35,354 nucleotides of DNA from Blastocatellia bacterium (GCA_017883315.1 JADGNW010000297.1:1-35354); one strand, 5' to 3'. Positions 1,988 to 9,609 are shown, counted from the first letter of the stretch. The notes: generated from the sequence alone by a model not told the origin. Made by a program: numbers and translations.

Positions 1988-2917
1988 TTAAGTCCCGGTT
2001 GATTTCCGAAGCGAGCGGTCGCGGATAACCTCTACCGAACAATGCGCGCGCATCGCGACGGCTTCAGAAACGCTACCCAATAAATAACGAGTCAGTCCGC
2101 GCCGGCCGTGTGAGCCGACCACCACCAAATGAGCGCCCCACGCGCTGGCGTCTTCGACGATTCGTTTCTTCGGGTTCCCATCCAGGACCGCAGTTTCCGT
2201 TTTGAATCCGGTTTGCACCACGATTTGTTCAGCGGCGCTGACTGCGTCCTCGCAATTCTTCGCGCTGACTTCGTTACGGGTTTTGGCGACCGCACCCGCG
2301 GCGTACCAGGGATCGGCTGCCGGAATGATCCGTTCAACCACGCTTGCGATCCTGAACTCCGTATCATCAGGCCAGGGCCGCTCGGCGATTGATCGAGCCG
2401 CTGCAAACGAGAACTCCGAGCCATCCGTAGCTAACAGGATTCTCATTCGTTCTCGCGGCTCGTCAGCTCGATGGTGATCGGGATGTTCAGCGTCGTGACG
2501 AGCGTGCCGGACTATCTCGACCGAGCAAGCAGCGTTTTCGACGACCGCTTTTGCAATGCTGCCCAAAAAGAAACGAACGAATCCGCCGTGTCCGTGCGAC
2601 CCGACGAACACGAAATCAGCGCCATACTTCTCCGCCTCTTCGGCGATGCTTGCTGCCGGGTACCCTTCGACTACTTGCGCCGTCGTCCGGAGGTCTCGCC
2701 GGCTCAGGCGTTCTGCCACTTCCTGAACCAGGAGCCGCGCCGCCTTGTTTTCGCTCTTCATGAAAGGCTCGAGATACCCGACGCTGTAGGTGAGCGCGAA
2801 CAAATCGATCACGGTGAGCACACACACTTCAGTGCCGGTCGGCCAGGGTCGCGCTTCGACTTCGCTCACGACCGATTCCGACAGCGGCGACGAATCAATG
2901 GCCAAAAGTATTTTCAC
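1988..2917 (-). CDS. Universal stress protein with two UspA domains
   Basis: Two repeats of (K/R)ILLA.D.S ... VGSHG..G..R(F/Y)(F/L)LGS(I/V)...V...A.CSVE. Likely start GTG 2917 with GGAGG 8 nt upstream; the ORF track starts at 2932. Confidence 0.92.
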   Translation of the reverse strand: MKILLAIDSSPLSESVVSEVEARPWPTGTEVCVLTVIDLFALTYSVGYLEPFMKSENKAARLLVQEVAERLSRRDLRTTAQVVEGYPAASIAEEAEKYGADFVFVGSHGHGGFVRFFLGSIAKAVVENAACSVEIVRHARHDAEHPDHHRADEPRERMRILLATDGSEFSFAAARSIAERPWPDDTEFRIASVVERIIPAADPWYAAGAVAKTRNEVSAKNCEDAVSAAEQIVVQTGFKTETAVLDGNPKKRIVEDASAWGAHLVVVGSHGRRGLTRYLLGSVSEAVAMRAHCSVEVIRDRSLRKSTGT

Positions 2918-3022
2918 GATCTTATCCTCCAAACTGTTGCAGCAAGACTGCTGCCAGGCTCTATTTTACGACAGCCAACCGGGAGCTTCCAATCGGGCGG
3001 TGACATCGCGAACCTCTGGGAG

Positions 3023-3050
3023 CGTAGGCCCACGTAGGCCCCACGTAGGC
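3023..3050. repeat. Short tandem repeat CGTAGGCCC(C)A, about 3 copies
   Basis: cgtaggccca cgtaggcccca cgtaggc in the usp / kinase intergenic region. Confidence 0.7.
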
Positions 3051-3100
3051 ATGGATGCCTGCGCCCTCAGGGCGGGAGGGGAACATCTCGGTGTTTGAGC

Positions 3101-3137
3101 CGGTTCGTCACGCGATAAATCCCATCGGTCACAAAGT
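3101..3137 (+). promoter_or_regulatory. Putative LytTR operator A (autoregulatory, upstream of kinase)
   Basis: CGGTTCGTCAC (3101) and CCATCGGTCAC (3122) at a 21-bp period. TCGTCACGCGAT and TCACAAAGT recur with identical spacing at 5276 and 5300. Confidence 0.65.
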
Positions 3138-3258
3138 TGTTCCACTAATGAACCTGCAGATACAGAATGGCGGCGCTACAACGAATGCTGGAAGTGTAAG
3201 AAGCCGGCGGGGTCGCGCTCGCCGTTCGCACTCAAACAATCCCAGGGGGAAAAATTAT

Positions 3259-3294
3259 TATAGGACGTATAGGACATATAGGACCTATAGGACG
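3259..3294. repeat. 9-bp tandem repeat TATAGGACN x4
   Basis: tataggacg tataggaca tataggacc tataggacg. Confidence 0.9.
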
Positions 3295-3325
3295 CATCAG
3301 TTAGAATGAAGATCTCAGGGGATTA

Positions 3326-4438
3326 ATGATCAGCAGACTCTTGAATCGTCGTTGGTTTCGCGCGGTTCTGGTAATGGCCGCGTGGACAGTCTTCGCGATT
3401 TTTCTGTCCAGCCAGATGTATCTTGCCTACAGCCGCGGCACGACGCCGATTCGATATCAGCGCATATTCTTAGTCGAGCTGATCTACGCATACATCTGGG
3501 CTTCACTGACTCCGTTCATTCTGTGGCTCGCGCGCCGCTTCAGGATCGACCGAGGTAGATGGCTTCGCGGGTTACTGGTCCATCTCAGCGCTTCATTATT
3601 GATCGGCGTCGCGACCCGAGTGTTGCACGATTTGATGCTCTTCTTCTTTCTCGCCGATTACGGCACGAGCTTCTCGGTCGTCAAGCTTCTGTTGAGTGTC
3701 TATTACATGACGGACTATGGCGCAATGGTCTATTGGCTAATACTTCTCGTCAGCTATGCCTTCGACTATCACCGGCGCGTCAGGGAAGGCGAGGTGCGAG
3801 CGACGCGGCTGAAAGCGCAGCTCGCGCAAGCTCAGCTTGATGCGCTCAAGATGCAGCTTCAACCTCATTTCCTGTTCAACACTCTTCACTCAATCTCGGC
3901 GCTGGTTCACAAGAACGCCAACGCAGCCGACCGAATGATCGCGCGGCTTGGAGACTTCTTGCGCCAAACGCTTGAGAATGCCGGAACTCAGGAAGTCTCA
4001 CTTCAGCAGGAACTCGAGTTTCTGAAATGCTATCTGGATATCGAGCGCATACGTTTCGAGGACCGGCTCACTGTTCAGATTGACATCGAGCCGCGAACAC
4101 TTGACGCGCAATTGCCAAACCTGATCCTGCAACCGATCGTTGAAAACGCTATTCGCCACGGCATCTCTCATCGAACCTCTCTCGGCCGAATCGAGATCGA
4201 AGCGCGGCGGCTGAATGGCACGCTTCAAGTTCAGGTCACAGACAACGGGCCGGGCCTTCCCTCCAACTCAAACTCGGGCGCCATAGTCAAAGAGGGCATA
4301 GGGCTTGCGAACACCCAGGCCCGGTTGAAACAACTCTACGGCGAAGATCATCGTCTCGACCTATCCAACACCGCTCGCGGCGGTCTCACAGTAACTCTAG
4401 AGATTCCCTTTCGAGAAGTAACTTCGAAGCAAAAATGA
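3326..4438 (+). CDS. LytS/YehU-family membrane sensor histidine kinase
   Basis: About 4 TM helices, then LKMQLQPHFLFNTLHSI (H-box), LQPIVENAIRHG (N-box), VTDNGPG and GIGLANTQARL. Confidence 0.95.
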   Translation: MISRLLNRRWFRAVLVMAAWTVFAIFLSSQMYLAYSRGTTPIRYQRIFLVELIYAYIWASLTPFILWLARRFRIDRGRWLRGLLVHLSASLLIGVATRVLHDLMLFFFLADYGTSFSVVKLLLSVYYMTDYGAMVYWLILLVSYAFDYHRRVREGEVRATRLKAQLAQAQLDALKMQLQPHFLFNTLHSISALVHKNANAADRMIARLGDFLRQTLENAGTQEVSLQQELEFLKCYLDIERIRFEDRLTVQIDIEPRTLDAQLPNLILQPIVENAIRHGISHRTSLGRIEIEARRLNGTLQVQVTDNGPGLPSNSNSGAIVKEGIGLANTQARLKQLYGEDHRLDLSNTARGGLTVTLEIPFREVTSKQK

Positions 4439-4483
4439 ACTCAGGGCGCCGCGCTGACGTTTAAGGCGGCAAAGGGAGTACTC

Positions 4484-5263
4484 ATGTCAGGCGCGACGTG
4501 TATTCGAACTCTGATTGTCGATGACGAATCCCTCGCACGCGAGCGGATTCGCGACATGCTCGCATCCGATCCGGCTATCGAGATTGTTGCCGAGTGCGCA
4601 AACGGCCAGGAAGCAATAGAAGCGATTCAGCAGTATTCACCCGACCTTGTCTTTCTCGACGTCGAGATGCCCGGCATCGACGGCTTCGCTGTCCTCGAGG
4701 CGCTGCCCGCTGATCGAATGCCGACACTGATATTCGTGACGGCGTACGATCAATACGCGGTGCGGGCTTTTGAGGTCTATGCGCTGGACTATCTATTGAA
4801 GCCGTTTGATCAGGAGCGTTTCGACAGGGCACTCAAACGGGCGAAGGAGCAGATTGCGAGCGAGCAGACCGAAGCTTTGAGCCAGCGAATTCTGAGAGCG
4901 ATCGAAGACATAAAGACCAAGCCGGTTCATCTGGAGCGCCTGGTAATCAAGCTGAACGGCCACGTCTTTTTCATGAAAGCCGAAGAGATAGACTGGCTCG
5001 AAGCCGAAGGCAACTACGTGCGTCTTCACTCGGGTAAGGAATCCTACCTGTTGAGAGACACGATAAGCGCGCTGGAATCACAACTCGATCCGAAGCGGTT
5101 CATACGGGTCCATCGCTCTGCCATCGTCAACGTCGATCGAATTTCAGAATTGCAGCCCTGGTTCCACGGCGAATACCGCATCGTCCTTCGCGAAGGCGTT
5201 CAACTCACGCTGTCGCGCACCTACAGAGAAAAGCTCCACGAGTTGTTGGGAAGGCCGTTGTAA
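4484..5263 (+). CDS. LytTR-family DNA-binding response regulator
   Basis: Receiver domain (IVDDE, FLDVEMP, FVTAYD, YLLKP) and LytTR domain (IDWLEAEGNYVRLH, FIRVHRSAIVN, LSRTY). Confidence 0.96.
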   Translation: MSGATCIRTLIVDDESLARERIRDMLASDPAIEIVAECANGQEAIEAIQQYSPDLVFLDVEMPGIDGFAVLEALPADRMPTLIFVTAYDQYAVRAFEVYALDYLLKPFDQERFDRALKRAKEQIASEQTEALSQRILRAIEDIKTKPVHLERLVIKLNGHVFFMKAEEIDWLEAEGNYVRLHSGKESYLLRDTISALESQLDPKRFIRVHRSAIVNVDRISELQPWFHGEYRIVLREGVQLTLSRTYREKLHELLGRPL

Positions 5264-5271
5264 GAGCACGC

Positions 5272-5360
5272 TTCCTCGTCACGCGATTCCGCCATCCCAT
5301 CACAAAGTCCCTTAGCTTCATCCCAAAACTGTTCTTCCAAAAAACCATCGCACCTAAACT
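5272..5360 (+). promoter_or_regulatory. Putative LytTR operator B with -10 box
   Basis: TCGTCAC (5276), CCATCAC (5297) and TCATCCC (5318) at an exact 21-bp period. TAAACT at 5355-5360. Confidence 0.7.
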
Positions 5361-5468
5361 CCTACGGTAACAGGCGCGCGTTTGGGCGGGAACGCGCGTA
5401 GGTTAACGCCGCGCTCCAGTCACGCAGTCGAGTTAGCGCGGCCAATCCCGATCGGGTGGAGGTCGTTT

Positions 5469-6020
5469 ATGAAGAGGATTGTGCGACTTATCACTGCGAC
5501 TGTCGCGCTGACCGCTGCAGCGATTCCAGCTCATAGCTTTAACCTGTCGGTCGGTGTGTCGCGCTCGCTCCTGGACGCGGTTGCGGCCACCAGAACACGC
5601 ACCAGCGCGGATTACGCGATGTCCAAGGTCGATAAAGGGATCGTGAAAGCCTTTGGGAAGGCCTGGCAAAGGTCGGGCGATGGAACGTCATCGCTGGAGG
5701 GTGTGGTCTTGATTCTGCGAATGGCTGACGGCAGCTTCAGTGGAAGGGACATGGGCGCGACCAACGAGTATAAGCGCTTCACTTTTCCATGGCACCCGGC
5801 AGCGATTGCGATCGTGCACACTCATCCAAACGGATCCGATCCGAAGCCGTGCGACCAGGACATCGTTGCCGCCGACAAGCGTGGGGTTCCCGTTTTCACC
5901 ATCACACGACGGGGGATGTATGTGTACGACCCCGGCACCAGGAAAATCAGCAAAGTGATGAACGATCTTGACTGGCTCGATCAATCGAGTTGGAGCAACG
6001 CGGTGTTTGTAAAACGGTAA
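5469..6020 (+). CDS. Exported protein with a JAB/MPN (JAMM)-like metal-binding motif
   Basis: GGAGG RBS then ATG 5469 (ORF track starts at 5382). Signal peptide MKRIVRLITATVALTAAAIPAHS. E in SLEGVVLI and HTHPNGSDPKPCDQD resemble E...HxH...S-x2-D. Confidence 0.7.
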   Translation: MKRIVRLITATVALTAAAIPAHSFNLSVGVSRSLLDAVAATRTRTSADYAMSKVDKGIVKAFGKAWQRSGDGTSSLEGVVLILRMADGSFSGRDMGATNEYKRFTFPWHPAAIAIVHTHPNGSDPKPCDQDIVAADKRGVPVFTITRRGMYVYDPGTRKISKVMNDLDWLDQSSWSNAVFVKR

Positions 6021-6056
6021 GACATCGTTGCTCTCAAACTGCTCACAAGTTTCCTC

Positions 6057-6098
6057 GCGGCCTTCGAGACACACTGCTCGAAGGCCGCATCCGTCTTT
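6057..6098 (+). terminator. Hairpin after the JAB-like gene, possible terminator
   Basis: Perfect 12-bp stem GCGGCCTTCGAG/CTCGAAGGCCGC with an 8-nt loop; only a weak T-tract follows. Confidence 0.5.
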
Positions 6099-6128
6099 AA
6101 ACGCTATCGGTCGGTTGCATATCAAATT

Positions 6129-6217
6129 TCGCTCGTCAGTCTTTTTGGCCACTCCGGCCCACGATGATCCGTCTTCATCCCAAATCTGTTTGCCGGTTCT
6201 ATTACTCCGCCTAGACT
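6129..6217 (+). promoter_or_regulatory. Putative LytTR operator C with -10 box, upstream of TonB receptor 1
   Basis: TCGTCAG (6133), CCGGCCC (6154) and TCATCCC (6175) at a 21-bp period. 6173-6190 matches 5316-5333 at 17/18 positions. TAGACT at 6212-6217 has the same offset as in operator B. Confidence 0.68.
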
Positions 6218-6360
6218 CGACGAGCACATTCTTGTTTGTGCGAGGCACGACGACGGAACGAAGTTGTGAGACTTGGGAGGGTCTCGGTGTTTCGCCAATG
6301 ACTAAATTGATTCAGCCCGCTCTGGAAGAAAACGAATTCTCAGTTTCAAGGAGAAGACAA

Positions 6361-9300
6361 ATGAGGCACCTTAGAAAAATGAAATCGCTGGCAGTCACCG
6401 CAGCATCTCTGATGATCGCGGTATTGCTGCTACCGCTATTCAGTAGTTCGGTTCTTGCGCAGTCCAGTAAAGGAATAATCGTAGGAACTACAAAGGACCC
6501 GTCTGGCGCAGTAGTCGACGGGGCCAGCATCAAGATCACTAACAAGGCTACGAATACATCACGCGAAACAACTACGACCGCAGAGGGCGGCTATCGCCTG
6601 GACGCGGTCGACCCGGGTTCATACAAAGTCGAGGCAACAGCGGGCGGCTTCAAGACCAGTACGCGTGACAACGTGGTCGTGGAAGCAGCCCAGGCTACGA
6701 CGATTGACTTTGCTTTTGAAGTGGGCGCCCAGACAGAAGTGGTCAACGTCAACGCAGATTCGAGCGTGATTCTGCAAAAGCAGGACGGCGCTCGTGCAAG
6801 CACTCTTGAGTCTCGCCAGATAGTTGACCTGCCCGTGGGAGCGCTCAATCCGGTGAATCTTGTCTTCACGCTTCCGGGCGTCACCAATCCCGGAGTGCTC
6901 GCAGGCGGATTCGTCCAGGGCACCGAGTTCAACATCAACGGGTTGAGAGCGCGCGCCAACAACCAGTTGATCGACGGCGCCGACAACAATGATAACTCGA
7001 TCACCGGCCAGCAGCTTCAACCGGGTCTGCGCGACGGATTCAAAGAGGTGACCGTGTTGGGCGGCGACAACTCCGCCGAATACGGCCGCGCCGGCGGCGC
7101 GGTGATCAATGTCGTCACCAAGAGCGGAACGAACCAGTTCCACGGTTCTGTTTACGACGTGATCGACACCAGCGCGCTTTCGTCGTTGAGCGCGGGCCAG
7201 AAGGCAAACGAAGGTCTAACCTCTGTGCCGGTGTACATCCAGAACGCGTTCGGTTTCTCCTTTGGCGGGCCGATAAAAAAGGACAAGCTGTTTTTCTTCG
7301 GGACGTTTCAGCCGACGCTGACTCGCATCGGGGCCGCAAACGGCTCGGCGGTCATTCCTACAGAACAGGGCTTCAACACCCTTCGCTCGCTTTTCCCGCA
7401 AGGCGCAAGCGCGAACCTGGATCGCTACCTCGGCGTTGTTGGAGGCCTTCGCGGCGCGACCAATACGTTCAATGTGCCCCTGGGAGGCGGACGGCCCGAC
7501 GTGCAGTTTGGAACAGTGACCGCCGCCGCACCCGCGCCCATCAACACCTATGATCTTCTAGCGCGCGTCGATTGGACGCCGAATGAGAGAGACAACTTCT
7601 CGGCGCGTTATATCTTCAACAACCAGGTGGTCACCAACCAGTTCCCCACGCCGTTTCAGGGCTTCGCTGTCGATGTTCCGGGGCGCGTGCAGAACCTCTA
7701 CGGCAACTACACTCGCATTCTCTCGTCGAGAATGACCAACGAGCTGCGGTTTTCGTATGGACGATTCAACGTGCTGTTCGGCGCTCAGGATCCAGCGGCG
7801 CTCAACTTTGGACCGCAGTTCCTGTTTTCAGGCGCTTCCATCACCGGCGTAGGCATACTCGGCGGTCTCACGACCACCTTCTTCCCTCAAGGCCGCGTGT
7901 TCAACAACTATCAGATTCAGGACACGATCACCTACACCAGCGGCGCACACACCATCCGAGCCGGGACGGACATGATGCGCCAGGCCGCTAAGCAGTTCGT
8001 TCCCTTCAACGCGCAGGGCACGCTGACCTTCTCAGCGGGCGGCGGGTTCCCGGCTTTCGGCAATTTCGTTGATGGATTCTCGGGGACGCAGGGAACATTC
8101 GCGGCGATTACGTTTGGCAGCCCGGTGACTCATCCCAACGCGTTTCAACAAGCGTATTTCGTCAACGACACGTGGCGGGTCAAGCCGAACCTGAGTTTGA
8201 ATCTGGGCCTTCGATACGAGAACTACGGGACGCGTTACAACGTGGTGCCGTTCCCGGCCTTCGCGGGCTTCGACAAACCGTTTGACGCTGTAGCGAAGCA
8301 GAAGGGTGACAACAACAACTTCGCTCCACGGGTGAGCTTCGCGTACACGCCGCACCTCGCGAGCTGGCTGTTCGGCGAAGACAAGACGGTGATTCGTGGT
8401 GGAGTTGGAGTCGGTTACGATGTCTACTTCAACAACATCCTGAGCAACACCGCGGCTTCGCCTCCGAACGCGTTTGGAGTCTCGCTTCTGGGCTCGACCG
8501 CAGGCGGCCGCGGACTCGCGAACGCAGGCGTCCACTCATTGCCAACGACGGGTTCTCCAAATCCGAAAGCTGCGGTCACCAGTATCGACCCGAACCTGGT
8601 CAACCCGATGACCTGGACCTGGAACCTTGACGTCCAGCGCGAGTTGCCGGGCAACTTCATCGTCGATGCGGCGTATGTTGGAACCCGCGGAATTCGACTG
8701 TTCATCAATGAGCAGTTGAACCCCGGAGTTAATAACGTGCGGCTGCATCCCGACCGCGGATCGATCGTGCTTCGAACAAACGGAGGCGATTCGATCTACC
8801 ACTCTCTGCAAACGCGTGTCGAGCGCGGATTCAAGAACGGCCTGCTCTTCCGCTTTGCATATACCTACTCGAAGGCGATAGACGACGTGAACAGCGAAGT
8901 CTTCGTCACGTCAGGCGGCGCAAGCAGGGCGTCGAACCCGTTTGATCGCAGGGCAGACCGCAGTGTGGCGAGCTTCGATGTTCCGCATCGAGGCGTGCTG
9001 TCTTTCATCTACGATGTTCCGGGTCCAAAGCGAGGGTTTCTCGGACAGGTTGGCGGTCTCTGGACGCTAGGAGGGATCTATCGGATACAGTCAGGGTCGG
9101 TCGAGACTCCCTTTGTCGGAGGGATCGATCTGAACGGCGATCTGGAGAACACCAATGACCGGCCGGCTATCGCGAACCTCAACGCACCTCCGACATCGGT
9201 GGCCATTCTCGCGTCGTTGCTGGGCGCCACGTCGCCGACCGGCTACGTTGATGCGAACGGGACTCCGGTGAATCCGGCGAACGTCCGATACATTGTGGAT

Positions 9301-9609
9301 CCAGCGATTCGCACTAACATCGCGGGCCGCAACACCCTGCGCGGGAACATAACTAACACAATGGACCTGAGCTTGAACAAGGGGTTCAGGCTGCCGTTTG
9401 AAGGTCACAAGCTCGAAGTGCGCTTTGATCTCTTCAACGTCTTCAACCACCCCAACTTCACCTGGGCGTTCTTGGGAGCCGACAATAGCAACGGCGACGT
9501 GACGAATCCGTTCTTCAACAACGTCCGGTTGAACGACGGCGGAATCACGGGACCGGTCGGCACGCAGGTCGGCCGTTACGGGCGGGTTCAGTTGCGCTAC
9601 AGCTTCTGA
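6361..9609 (+). CDS. TonB-dependent receptor 1 (Oar-like, N-terminal carboxypeptidase-regulatory-like domain)
   Basis: Signal peptide; GTTKDPSGAVVDGA; plug motifs INGLR..ANNQLIDG and SAEYGRAGGAVINVVTKSGTN; barrel NLGLRYE; C-terminal LRYSF. Likely start ATG 6361 after AGGAG; the ORF track starts at 6028. Confidence 0.93.
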   Translation: MRHLRKMKSLAVTAASLMIAVLLLPLFSSSVLAQSSKGIIVGTTKDPSGAVVDGASIKITNKATNTSRETTTTAEGGYRLDAVDPGSYKVEATAGGFKTSTRDNVVVEAAQATTIDFAFEVGAQTEVVNVNADSSVILQKQDGARASTLESRQIVDLPVGALNPVNLVFTLPGVTNPGVLAGGFVQGTEFNINGLRARANNQLIDGADNNDNSITGQQLQPGLRDGFKEVTVLGGDNSAEYGRAGGAVINVVTKSGTNQFHGSVYDVIDTSALSSLSAGQKANEGLTSVPVYIQNAFGFSFGGPIKKDKLFFFGTFQPTLTRIGAANGSAVIPTEQGFNTLRSLFPQGASANLDRYLGVVGGLRGATNTFNVPLGGGRPDVQFGTVTAAAPAPINTYDLLARVDWTPNERDNFSARYIFNNQVVTNQFPTPFQGFAVDVPGRVQNLYGNYTRILSSRMTNELRFSYGRFNVLFGAQDPAALNFGPQFLFSGASITGVGILGGLTTTFFPQGRVFNNYQIQDTITYTSGAHTIRAGTDMMRQAAKQFVPFNAQGTLTFSAGGGFPAFGNFVDGFSGTQGTFAAITFGSPVTHPNAFQQAYFVNDTWRVKPNLSLNLGLRYENYGTRYNVVPFPAFAGFDKPFDAVAKQKGDNNNFAPRVSFAYTPHLASWLFGEDKTVIRGGVGVGYDVYFNNILSNTAASPPNAFGVSLLGSTAGGRGLANAGVHSLPTTGSPNPKAAVTSIDPNLVNPMTWTWNLDVQRELPGNFIVDAAYVGTRGIRLFINEQLNPGVNNVRLHPDRGSIVLRTNGGDSIYHSLQTRVERGFKNGLLFRFAYTYSKAIDDVNSEVFVTSGGASRASNPFDRRADRSVASFDVPHRGVLSFIYDVPGPKRGFLGQVGGLWTLGGIYRIQSGSVETPFVGGIDLNGDLENTNDRPAIANLNAPPTSVAILASLLGATSPTGYVDANGTPVNPANVRYIVDPAIRTNIAGRNTLRGNITNTMDLSLNKGFRLPFEGHKLEVRFDLFNVFNHPNFTWAFLGADNSNGDVTNPFFNNVRLNDGGITGPVGTQVGRYGRVQLRYSF

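Follow-up and report, generated by a model that had tools for sequence, protein, structure and literature searches.

Direct repeats of a 21-nucleotide period as probable operators of a LytTR-type response regulator in a Blastocatellia genome

The DNA stretch analyzed here (GCA_017883315.1 JADGNW010000297.1:1-35354, Blastocatellia bacterium) is a whole contig (C12) of 35,354 bases, referred to below as the window, and it belongs to a genome (G000) of 4.63 Mb (4,628,963 bases) with 522 contigs and 56% G+C. The sources of homologues of one window protein assign them to Blastocatellia or Acidobacteriota bacteria. Three successive intergenic regions of the window carry imperfect direct repeats with a 21-nucleotide (nt) period (sites A, B, and C; Table 1); they lie upstream of an operon encoding a sensor histidine kinase and a LytTR response regulator, of a gene for a small, putatively JAB/MPN-like protein, and of a gene for a TonB-dependent receptor, respectively. 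These repeats are likely to be the operators of the adjacent LytS/AlgZ-type kinase/LytTR regulator pair, which would use them to activate promoters with poor -35 elements. The system belongs to the known class of LytTR-operated promoters, and as a regulon it is of an ordinary, well-supported type.

The three regions had been read before as a local LytTR regulon, and on re-reading the sequence the heptamer, hexamer, and shared-block coordinates of this original prediction were all correct. Sites A and B have TCGTCACGCGAT and TCACAAAGT in common at the same 24-nt offset, and sites B and C are identical at 17 of 18 nt, as had been claimed. The hexamers TAAACT, TAGACT, and CAGAAT each start 37 nt past the start of the last heptamer, and no canonical sigma-70 -35/-10 pair was found on the plus strand of the three intergenic regions, which agrees with the proposal that these hexamers are -10 elements lacking a good -35. 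The 7-nt repeats described in the prediction are real, but the unit is longer and can be written as GGyC-n2-3-TTCRTCMCAA, with nnTTGTT added in the proximal copy. Because the 10-nt core of the repeat recurs with a 21-nt period, the spacer is 11 nt long. The layout, in which imperfect direct repeats end just 5′ of a conserved -10-like hexamer, is LytTR-like, as had been anticipated, and the neighboring regulator was identified by Pfam as a REC and LytTR domain protein encoded beside a PF06580 kinase. Transcription is predicted to start near position 3175 for A, 5367 for B, and 6224 for C.

The conservation of the sites was analyzed in 15 orthologous loci of relatives, and 45 sites (15 of class A, 16 of class B, and 14 of class C) were placed in anchored alignments. 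Synteny of the genes for the kinase, the regulator, and the small protein holds in 15/15 loci (the kinase is cut by the end of the stretch in L029), and in each of the 16 loci of the B alignment, site B directly follows the regulator gene. A receptor orthologue of at least 75% identity comes next in 10 of the 15 loci and a paralogue of 32% identity in one; the remaining four have no receptor or a remnant, and one of these is cut by the contig end. The data showed that in the orthologous loci TTC[GA]TC[AC]C repeats are present at an exact 21-nt period, two in A and three in both B and C, and that all three promoter classes keep an AAnnTTGTT block as well as a TAAACT/TAGAAT hexamer, whose distance to the start of the last repeat is 38 nt. 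The information in the alignments is concentrated in the repeat cores, the TTGTT block, and the -10-like hexamer, with little of it in the spacers. Columns 1-64 of the 45-row MAFFT alignment contain no gaps, and therefore the 21-nt repeat spacing holds in 45/45 sites; within the proximal repeat, four core positions do not vary in any of them. A 19-nt matrix for the proximal repeat, used with no constraint on the offsets, gave 75 distinct matches over all fetched loci, training sites included. The best upstream heptamer (searched from -30 to -12, at least 5 bits) was found at -21 for 52 of the 75 matches, at -22 for three, and elsewhere for six, while 14 had none. A TAnAnT hexamer was present at +38 in 45/75 matches and at +37 to +39 in 60/75.

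The frequency of the motif was determined in the window and in the whole genome. The exact sequence TCGTCACGCGAT occurs twice in the 4,628,963 bases when both strands are counted, at 3105 and 5276, and the 18-mer shared by B and C, at up to one mismatch, also occurs twice genome-wide, at 5316 and 6173. The pair YCRTCMC-N14-YCRTCMC, at up to two mismatches, matches the window 20 times, compared with an expectation of 8.65, and none of 100 shuffled sequences had as many. With up to one mismatch there are six matches in the window, four of them inside the three operators. The bare heptamer pair is moderately specific and too degenerate to define a regulon alone. A matrix of 49 columns, covering two proximal repeats only, was made from 28 B and C sites of other genomes, with the window sites excluded. 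Among about 9.3 million positions, its five best matches were, in order, sites B and C of the window, one site each on contigs C220 and C472, and site A of the window (scores of 54.5, 41.2, 34.2, 24.2, and 23.8); the next match, in apparent coding sequence, scored 20.7, and all others scored at most 13. A second matrix, made from 14 A sites of other genomes, ranked A first, C472 second, and C third genome-wide, with B fifth when shifted by exactly one repeat and eighth in register. The same five genome sites were found with nhmmer profiles. Together, the matrices and nhmmer therefore indicate that A, B, and C share one motif, which is rare in the genome. A genome scan with a matrix from orthologous sites, which had been suggested along with the original prediction, placed the three window sites in the top five (B/C matrix) or the top eight (A matrix). 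The claim of a local regulon was borne out in that three sites are present in the locus, but the regulon is not purely local, with at least two more sites on other contigs.

To describe the distribution of the motif, a sequence-only covariance model (R1) was built from the 45 sites and compared with 31 genomes of the family, representing 20 genera, at a cut-off expectation value (E) of ≤0.01. Matches were present in 26/31 genomes and 17/20 genera; most of the positive genomes have three to six matches, which are often clustered, and six have only one. A regulator orthologue of at least 67% identity is encoded in 21 of the 31 genomes, all of which have R1 matches, 20 of them at least three. The 10 genomes without such an orthologue comprise five with no match, four with one weak match, and one (82% complete) with three. 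In three of the four genomes with one weak match (G024, G050, and G055), this single match is located directly behind the gene of a paralogous regulator with 53-60% identity.

Several observations weigh against the assignment of the repeats to the adjacent regulator as operators of its regulon. Some repeats within the window are weak, as the second repeat of C contains CCGGCCC without the TC core, and the second repeat of A reads TCGGTCAC. The A-type and B-type models find each other weakly by nhmmer (E of about 4-6); the link between A and B comes from the repeat-core matrix. Sites B and C have three phased repeats, compared with two in the usual LytTR site. In two genomes, G011 and G018, the C-type operator is kept with no full-length receptor behind it. 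The genomes of the family are kin, and so the co-occurrence counts are not independent and serve as a description rather than a statistical test. Additionally, at least one LytTR paralogue of the regulator is present in this genome (C78; a partial match at 59% identity), and because paralogous systems elsewhere adjoin related motifs, cross-recognition is possible.

The last point leads to the idea that the repeats are bound by some other regulator, either a paralogous LytTR protein or an unrelated direct-repeat binder, and that their adjacency to the regulator gene is incidental or reflects cross-regulation. The presence of a paralogue in this genome could support it, as could the related sites directly 3′ of the genes of the 53-60% identical paralogues, which suggest that the recognition codes overlap. 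However, site B begins 12 nt past the stop codon of the regulator gene and stays behind it in 16/16 loci, site A precedes the operon of the same regulator, and at least three matches are present in 20/21 genomes having the orthologue of at least 67% identity versus 1/10 of those without it, which makes binding by another protein quite unlikely. If instead the regulator binds the repeats but represses, or both activates and represses, this would have a precedent in AlgR, which does both, for example at rhlA, according to excerpts of the source (PMC4064291), and the proximal repeat and the TTGTT block do overlap the place where a -35 element would be. On the other hand, the sites are 5′ of the -10 hexamer and end near -32, and none overlaps the -10 or the start, and a poor or mis-spaced -35 (about 20 nt) is a common trait of promoters that need an activator, agr P3 among them, as described in the available part of the study (PMC5600425). 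A repressing or dual role therefore appears very unlikely.

It is also conceivable that the conserved blocks are not activator sites, but the core promoter of an alternative sigma factor or UP-like elements, and that the promoters share a sigma specificity. This would fit the finding that the TTGTTY block and the CCTAAACTC hexamer match the repeats in their degree of conservation and keep a constant distance, as well as the lack of any detected canonical sigma-70 promoter in the three regions. What makes it highly improbable is that the conservation reaches to about -92 in a unit that recurs two or three times with an exact 21-nt period, a feature not required by any sigma factor, that there are only five sites in 4.63 Mb, and that the TAAACT/TAGAAT hexamers resemble an ordinary -10. 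An origin of the sites by chance or as duplication remnants was also considered, and rejected; every site class is separately conserved across genera, and the spacers have diverged.

If the repeats are operators of the adjacent LytTR regulator, the phosphorylated protein would bind head-to-tail to direct repeats of about 16 nt, with the core TTC[GA]TC[AC]CAA and the 5′ extension GGyC, and the exact spacing of 21 base pairs (bp) would place all protomers on one face of the helix. Provided that the hexamer is the -10 element, the proximal repeat would cover about -50 to -41 and the TTGTTY block about -38 to -33, 20 nt from the -10, while the repeats further upstream would be centered one and two double turns 5′ of the proximal repeat. 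With a poor or mis-spaced -35, the promoters would depend on the bound regulator to recruit RNA polymerase. Promoter A, with its two repeats, would serve positive autoregulation of the kinase-regulator operon, and promoters B and C, with three repeats each, would drive the putatively secreted JAB/MPN-like protein and the TonB-dependent receptor. The promoters on contigs C220 and C472 would drive a degenerate sigma-54-activator-like DNA-binding protein and an operon for a TPR/beta-propeller protein and an amidohydrolase. It is a matter of speculation whether the third repeat in B and C accommodates a third protomer or offers two overlapping dimer registers. What the sequences show directly is the architecture of the sites, how far it is conserved, how specific it is within the genome, and that it occurs together with the regulator. 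In this scheme we infer from the sequence the binding, the direction of regulation, and the transcription starts, as well as the existence of a signal sensed by the kinase.

The two sites outside the window have the same design as those inside it. The site on contig C220 has three repeats and TAAACT at +38, and it precedes a gene (L036:5921-6940, minus strand of the contig) for a protein of 339 residues, which contains a partial Sigma54_activat domain, an AAA lid, and a Fis-type helix-turn-helix motif, and has no receiver domain. The GAFTGA loop and the Walker B Asp-Glu, which are the usual motifs of sigma-54 activators, are not present in this protein, and GTLYVEGL stands at the expected place of Walker B; it is likely an ATPase-dead, DNA-binding derivative. 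The similarity of this target to sigma-54 activators prompted the consideration of sigma-54 promoters, whose consensus element is GG-N10-GC, but this reading was dropped, as no such element was seen by eye, without a pattern scan, and the hexamers are -10-like. The site on contig C472 is of the two-repeat A type, and it precedes a gene for a TPR and SGL/beta-propeller protein followed by an amidohydrolase gene. Sites are located before the activator-like gene in G000, G010, G012, G015, G016, and G048, and before the TPR/propeller gene in G000, G018, and G051. Further sites are found before paralogous receptors and a paralogous JAB-like gene.

The small protein encoded behind site B had been labeled JAB-like, which is reasonable in view of its conserved residues, the Prok-JAB matches of its family, and the results of a fold search. 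The family has relatives in 24/24 genomes of the same bacterial family versus 0/16 genomes of other families in the class, with several paralogues per genome. Among 23 sequences, E77 and D131 are invariant, and H117 and H119 (H117-x-H119) are at least 90% conserved. The canonical JAMM motif is HxHx7Sx2D; here an invariant P127 is found at the place of the Ser, and the Asp is offset by one residue. The match of the window protein to Prok-JAB (PF14464; E of 0.0084) was below the cut-off, while nine of the 23 family members match this domain, the best with 1.6e-8. Because a sequence-profile search of the PDB with the alignment of the small proteins gave nothing but a spurious match to topoisomerase II (E of 0.41), which was discarded, a fold search was needed. 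The AlphaFold2 model of the protein has a mean predicted local distance difference test score (pLDDT) of 77, with residues 1-42 disordered, and the top Foldseek matches in the PDB were all JAMM/MPN proteins, although weak (the best, 5lda, with E of 8.5e-4 and template modeling (TM) scores of 0.38 by query length and 0.51 by target length). By eye, the N-terminus resembles a Sec signal peptide, which is unusual for a JAB/MPN-like protein, as most JAB domains are found in the cytoplasm.

The leader of the small gene, which is about 100 nt long (5375 to about 5468), carries a conserved GC-rich hairpin or inverted repeat (Table 1), and it has a second element, GACCnGTTGGAGTTGGTC, which encloses the Shine-Dalgarno sequence in most orthologues. 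A stem was predicted by RNAalifold, with changes on both sides in one of eight stem pairs and in two of the 12 predicted pairs overall. With so few such changes, an RNA structure of the leader is unsupported by covariation, and an inverted repeat in the DNA is equally possible. An Rfam scan of positions 2900-6500 at E of ≤1 gave no match. The hairpin could be a cis-regulatory RNA or a second operator.

Table 1. Features of the window, and patterns of the three site classes conserved in orthologous loci
Feature	Position	Strand	Description
Operator A (putative)	3099..3143	+	5′ of kinase/regulator operon; two direct repeats 21 nt apart, TTCGTCACGC (3104-3113) and TCGGTCACAA (3125-3134); first with 5′ extension GCCGG, second followed by AGTTGTTCC; heptamers TCGTCAC 3105, CGGTCAC 3126
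Putative -10 of promoter A	3163..3168	+	CAGAAT; TAGAAT in most orthologues; 38 nt from TTC start of proximal repeat
Operator B (putative)	5275..5334	+	Begins 12 nt past regulator stop codon; three direct repeats, 21-nt period, CTCGTCACGC (5275-5284), CCCATCACAA (5296-5305), and TTCATCCCAA (5317-5326), followed by AACTGTTC; heptamers TCGTCAC 5276, CCATCAC 5297, TCATCCC 5318
Putative -10 of promoter B	5355..5360	+	TAAACT; family consensus CCTAAACTC
Operator C (putative)	6132..6192	+	5′ of TonB-dependent receptor; three repeats, 21-nt period, CTCGTCAGTC (6132-6141), TCCGGCCCAC (6153-6162; degenerate in this genome, family consensus tCCgTCCCA), and TTCATCCCAA (6174-6183), followed by ATCTGTTTGC; heptamers TCGTCAG 6133, CCGGCCC 6154, TCATCCC 6175
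Putative -10 of promoter C	6212..6217	+	TAGACT; position conserved in orthologues
Class A conserved pattern			GCCGgTTCGTCAC ... aGGCCgGTTCGTCACAAtcTTGTTc ... TAGAATgg; repeats kept as GCCGgTTCGTCAC-N-aGGCCgGTTCGTCACAAtcTTGTTc; 15/15 aligned A sites
Class B conserved pattern			CTCGTCACG..TTTCGGTCAG.CCATCACAAAGT ...... CTTCATCCCAAA.t.GTTC ... CCTAAACTCC; 16/16 aligned B sites
Class C conserved pattern			cTCGTCAGtc.TTTcGtCCAc.tCCgTCCCA ...... TTCATCCCAAA.tTGTTTC ... CCTAAACTCGAC; 14/14 aligned C sites
GC-rich hairpin or inverted repeat, small-gene leader	5375..5398	+	GCGCGCGTT-loop-AACGCGCG; strongly conserved; loop TTCGGGCGGGAA conserved
Universal-stress-protein gene	1988-2932	-	
Sensor histidine kinase, LytS/AlgZ type	3326..4438	+	Pfam PF06580 (His_kinase) 3.8e-27; PF02518 (HATPase_c) 7.1e-11
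Response regulator, receiver and LytTR DNA-binding domain	4484..5263	+	Pfam PF04397 7.9e-28; PF00072 1.6e-25
Small protein, 183 residues	5469..6020	+	No Pfam match above threshold; signal-peptide-like N-terminus, predicted JAB/MPN-like fold
TonB-dependent receptor, CarboxypepD_reg, Plug, and OMP beta-barrel	6361..9609	+	Pfam PF25183 3.3e-135, PF13620 4.6e-20, PF07715 5.2e-06

The N-terminus of the kinase is membrane-spanning, and it is followed by the His_kinase and HATPase_c domains. A tandem repeat of CGTAGGCCCCA (2.6 copies, 11-nt period) is located at 3023-3050, between operator A and the divergent gene for the universal stress protein. The kinase operon has a conserved stem–loop in its leader at 3203-3230, GCCGGCGGGG-n-CTCGCCGTTCGCA, which is followed by CAATCnCAAGGGGAAA in most orthologues; orthologues L031 and L033 have other stem sequences at the same place, which hints at a structure. 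Just 5′ of the kinase gene, at 3259-3294, another tandem repeat, of TATAGGACG, has four copies with a 9-nt period. This repeat was not seen at the corresponding place in 14 orthologous upstream regions, and most orthologues instead carry there a conserved TGTGCTATTGT, which resembles an extended -10, perhaps that of a second, basal promoter. Behind the C-type operator of L032 (G011), around position 4193, the receptor gene is missing and a convergent open reading frame of 1,694 codons is present, while in L034 (G018), at about 4288-4913, the receptor is a remnant of 158 codons that matches only the last 90 receptor residues.

These results give a precise and testable operator, half-site, and regulon for a two-component system that is conserved in no fewer than 17 genera of an acidobacterial family whose members are largely uncultured. 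To our knowledge, almost no transcription-factor binding sites are known in that acidobacterial group, and a narrow literature search joining LytTR, Acidobacteria, and TonB-dependent receptors found no published description of this regulon. The sites also provide natural data on LytTR site geometry, in that the phasing is strictly 21 bp, a third repeat is optional, and the distance to the -10 is fixed at 38 nt. They would also place under one signal an unusual gene set, in which a TonB-dependent receptor is joined by a putatively secreted JAB/MPN-like protein and a degenerate relative of sigma-54 activators. A much wider reading, which we consider unlikely, is that the sites belong to a family-wide, two-tier circuit of Blastocatellia that leads from the envelope to the genes and combines an uptake module, a relay, a feedback, and a recognition code common to several phyla. 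If this were true, a kinase without an obvious outside sensing domain would induce an outer-membrane uptake module of the receptor and a secreted JAB/MPN-like peptidase via phased three-protomer operators, and the receiver-less activator-like protein (without GAFTGA and Walker B Asp-Glu) would pass the signal on to genes of a second tier. The signal sensed by the kinase would itself be made or imported by the JAB-like enzyme or by the receptor, which would close a positive feedback loop, and the TTCGTC core, common with Pseudomonas AlgR, would mean that the LytTR recognition code is conserved across phyla. Nothing known about LytTR regulators is overturned by these data.

To place the system among known ones, it was compared with several LytTR regulators. 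AlgZ (FimS)/AlgR of Pseudomonas aeruginosa is the same kind of pair, with AlgZ/FimS presumably being a kinase of the PF06580 multi-pass-membrane type, and the regulator studied here has REC and LytTR domains. The TTCGTC core, which also has a TTCATC variant, corresponds to the 3′ six bases of the AlgR consensus CCGTTCGTC, for which CCGTTCATC is also given, and in operator A the GCCG before the core results in GCCGGTTCGTC, which is the AlgR 9-mer with one extra base; these are resemblances of motif only, judged against excerpts of the two sources (PMC4064291, PMC4787818). According to the excerpted text, AlgR sites are often single, far upstream or within genes, and not necessarily direct repeats with 12-bp spacing (PMC4064291), while the sites described here are strictly spaced by 21 nt and promoter-proximal, and the regulon content is different. 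No AlgR-specific model was among the best 25 of the 93 NCBIfam matches of the regulator, which were led by BtsR and LytR, both below their cut-offs.

The best of these matches was BtsR (NF008677), with E of 1.2e-55 and 188.5 bits, which is less than the 246-bit cut-off, and therefore the regulator is not a BtsR equivalog. In Escherichia coli, BtsS/BtsR (YehU/YehT) and YpdA/YpdB are pairs of the LytS/LytTR kind that control small sets of transport genes. The predicted targets of the present system do not include a pyruvate transporter but comprise an outer-membrane receptor, a JAB-like protein, and a regulator. The sites of BtsR and YpdB consist of two repeats with 11-13-nt spacers, and the YpdB repeat GGCATTTCAT, as given in an excerpt of the source, is unrelated to the half-site TTCGTCAC found here (PMC4847170).

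In general, LytTR sites have been described, in the parts of the papers available, as 9-11-nt direct repeats with 11-13-nt spacers located just 5′ of the -35 (PMC4847170, PMC5600425, PMC4064291). The layout of the present sites can be called AgrA-like, whereas the half-site core TTCGTC looks AlgR-like. AgrC/AgrA with the agr P2/P3 promoters of Staphylococcus aureus likewise has a LytTR regulator, autoregulation of its own operon, which is here a prediction, and a sub-optimal promoter, and its sites, in the excerpts cited, are imperfect direct repeats of about 9-11 nt with 12-13-nt spacers, about 21 bp from center to center, adjoining the -35 (PMC5600425, PMC4064291). The P3 promoter has 20 bp between -35 and -10, according to part of the source (PMC5600425). 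The sites of ComE, PlnC/D, VirR, and FsrA can be grouped with agr as similar. No autoinducer peptide genes were noticed at the system studied here, in contrast to agr, and its kinase is of the LytS/AlgZ type (PF06580) rather than a peptide receptor, in a different phylum, Acidobacteriota. The AgrA-type half-site, [TA][AC][CA]GTTN[AG][TG], differs from the TTCGTCAC found here, and two of the three promoters in the window have three phased repeats instead of two.

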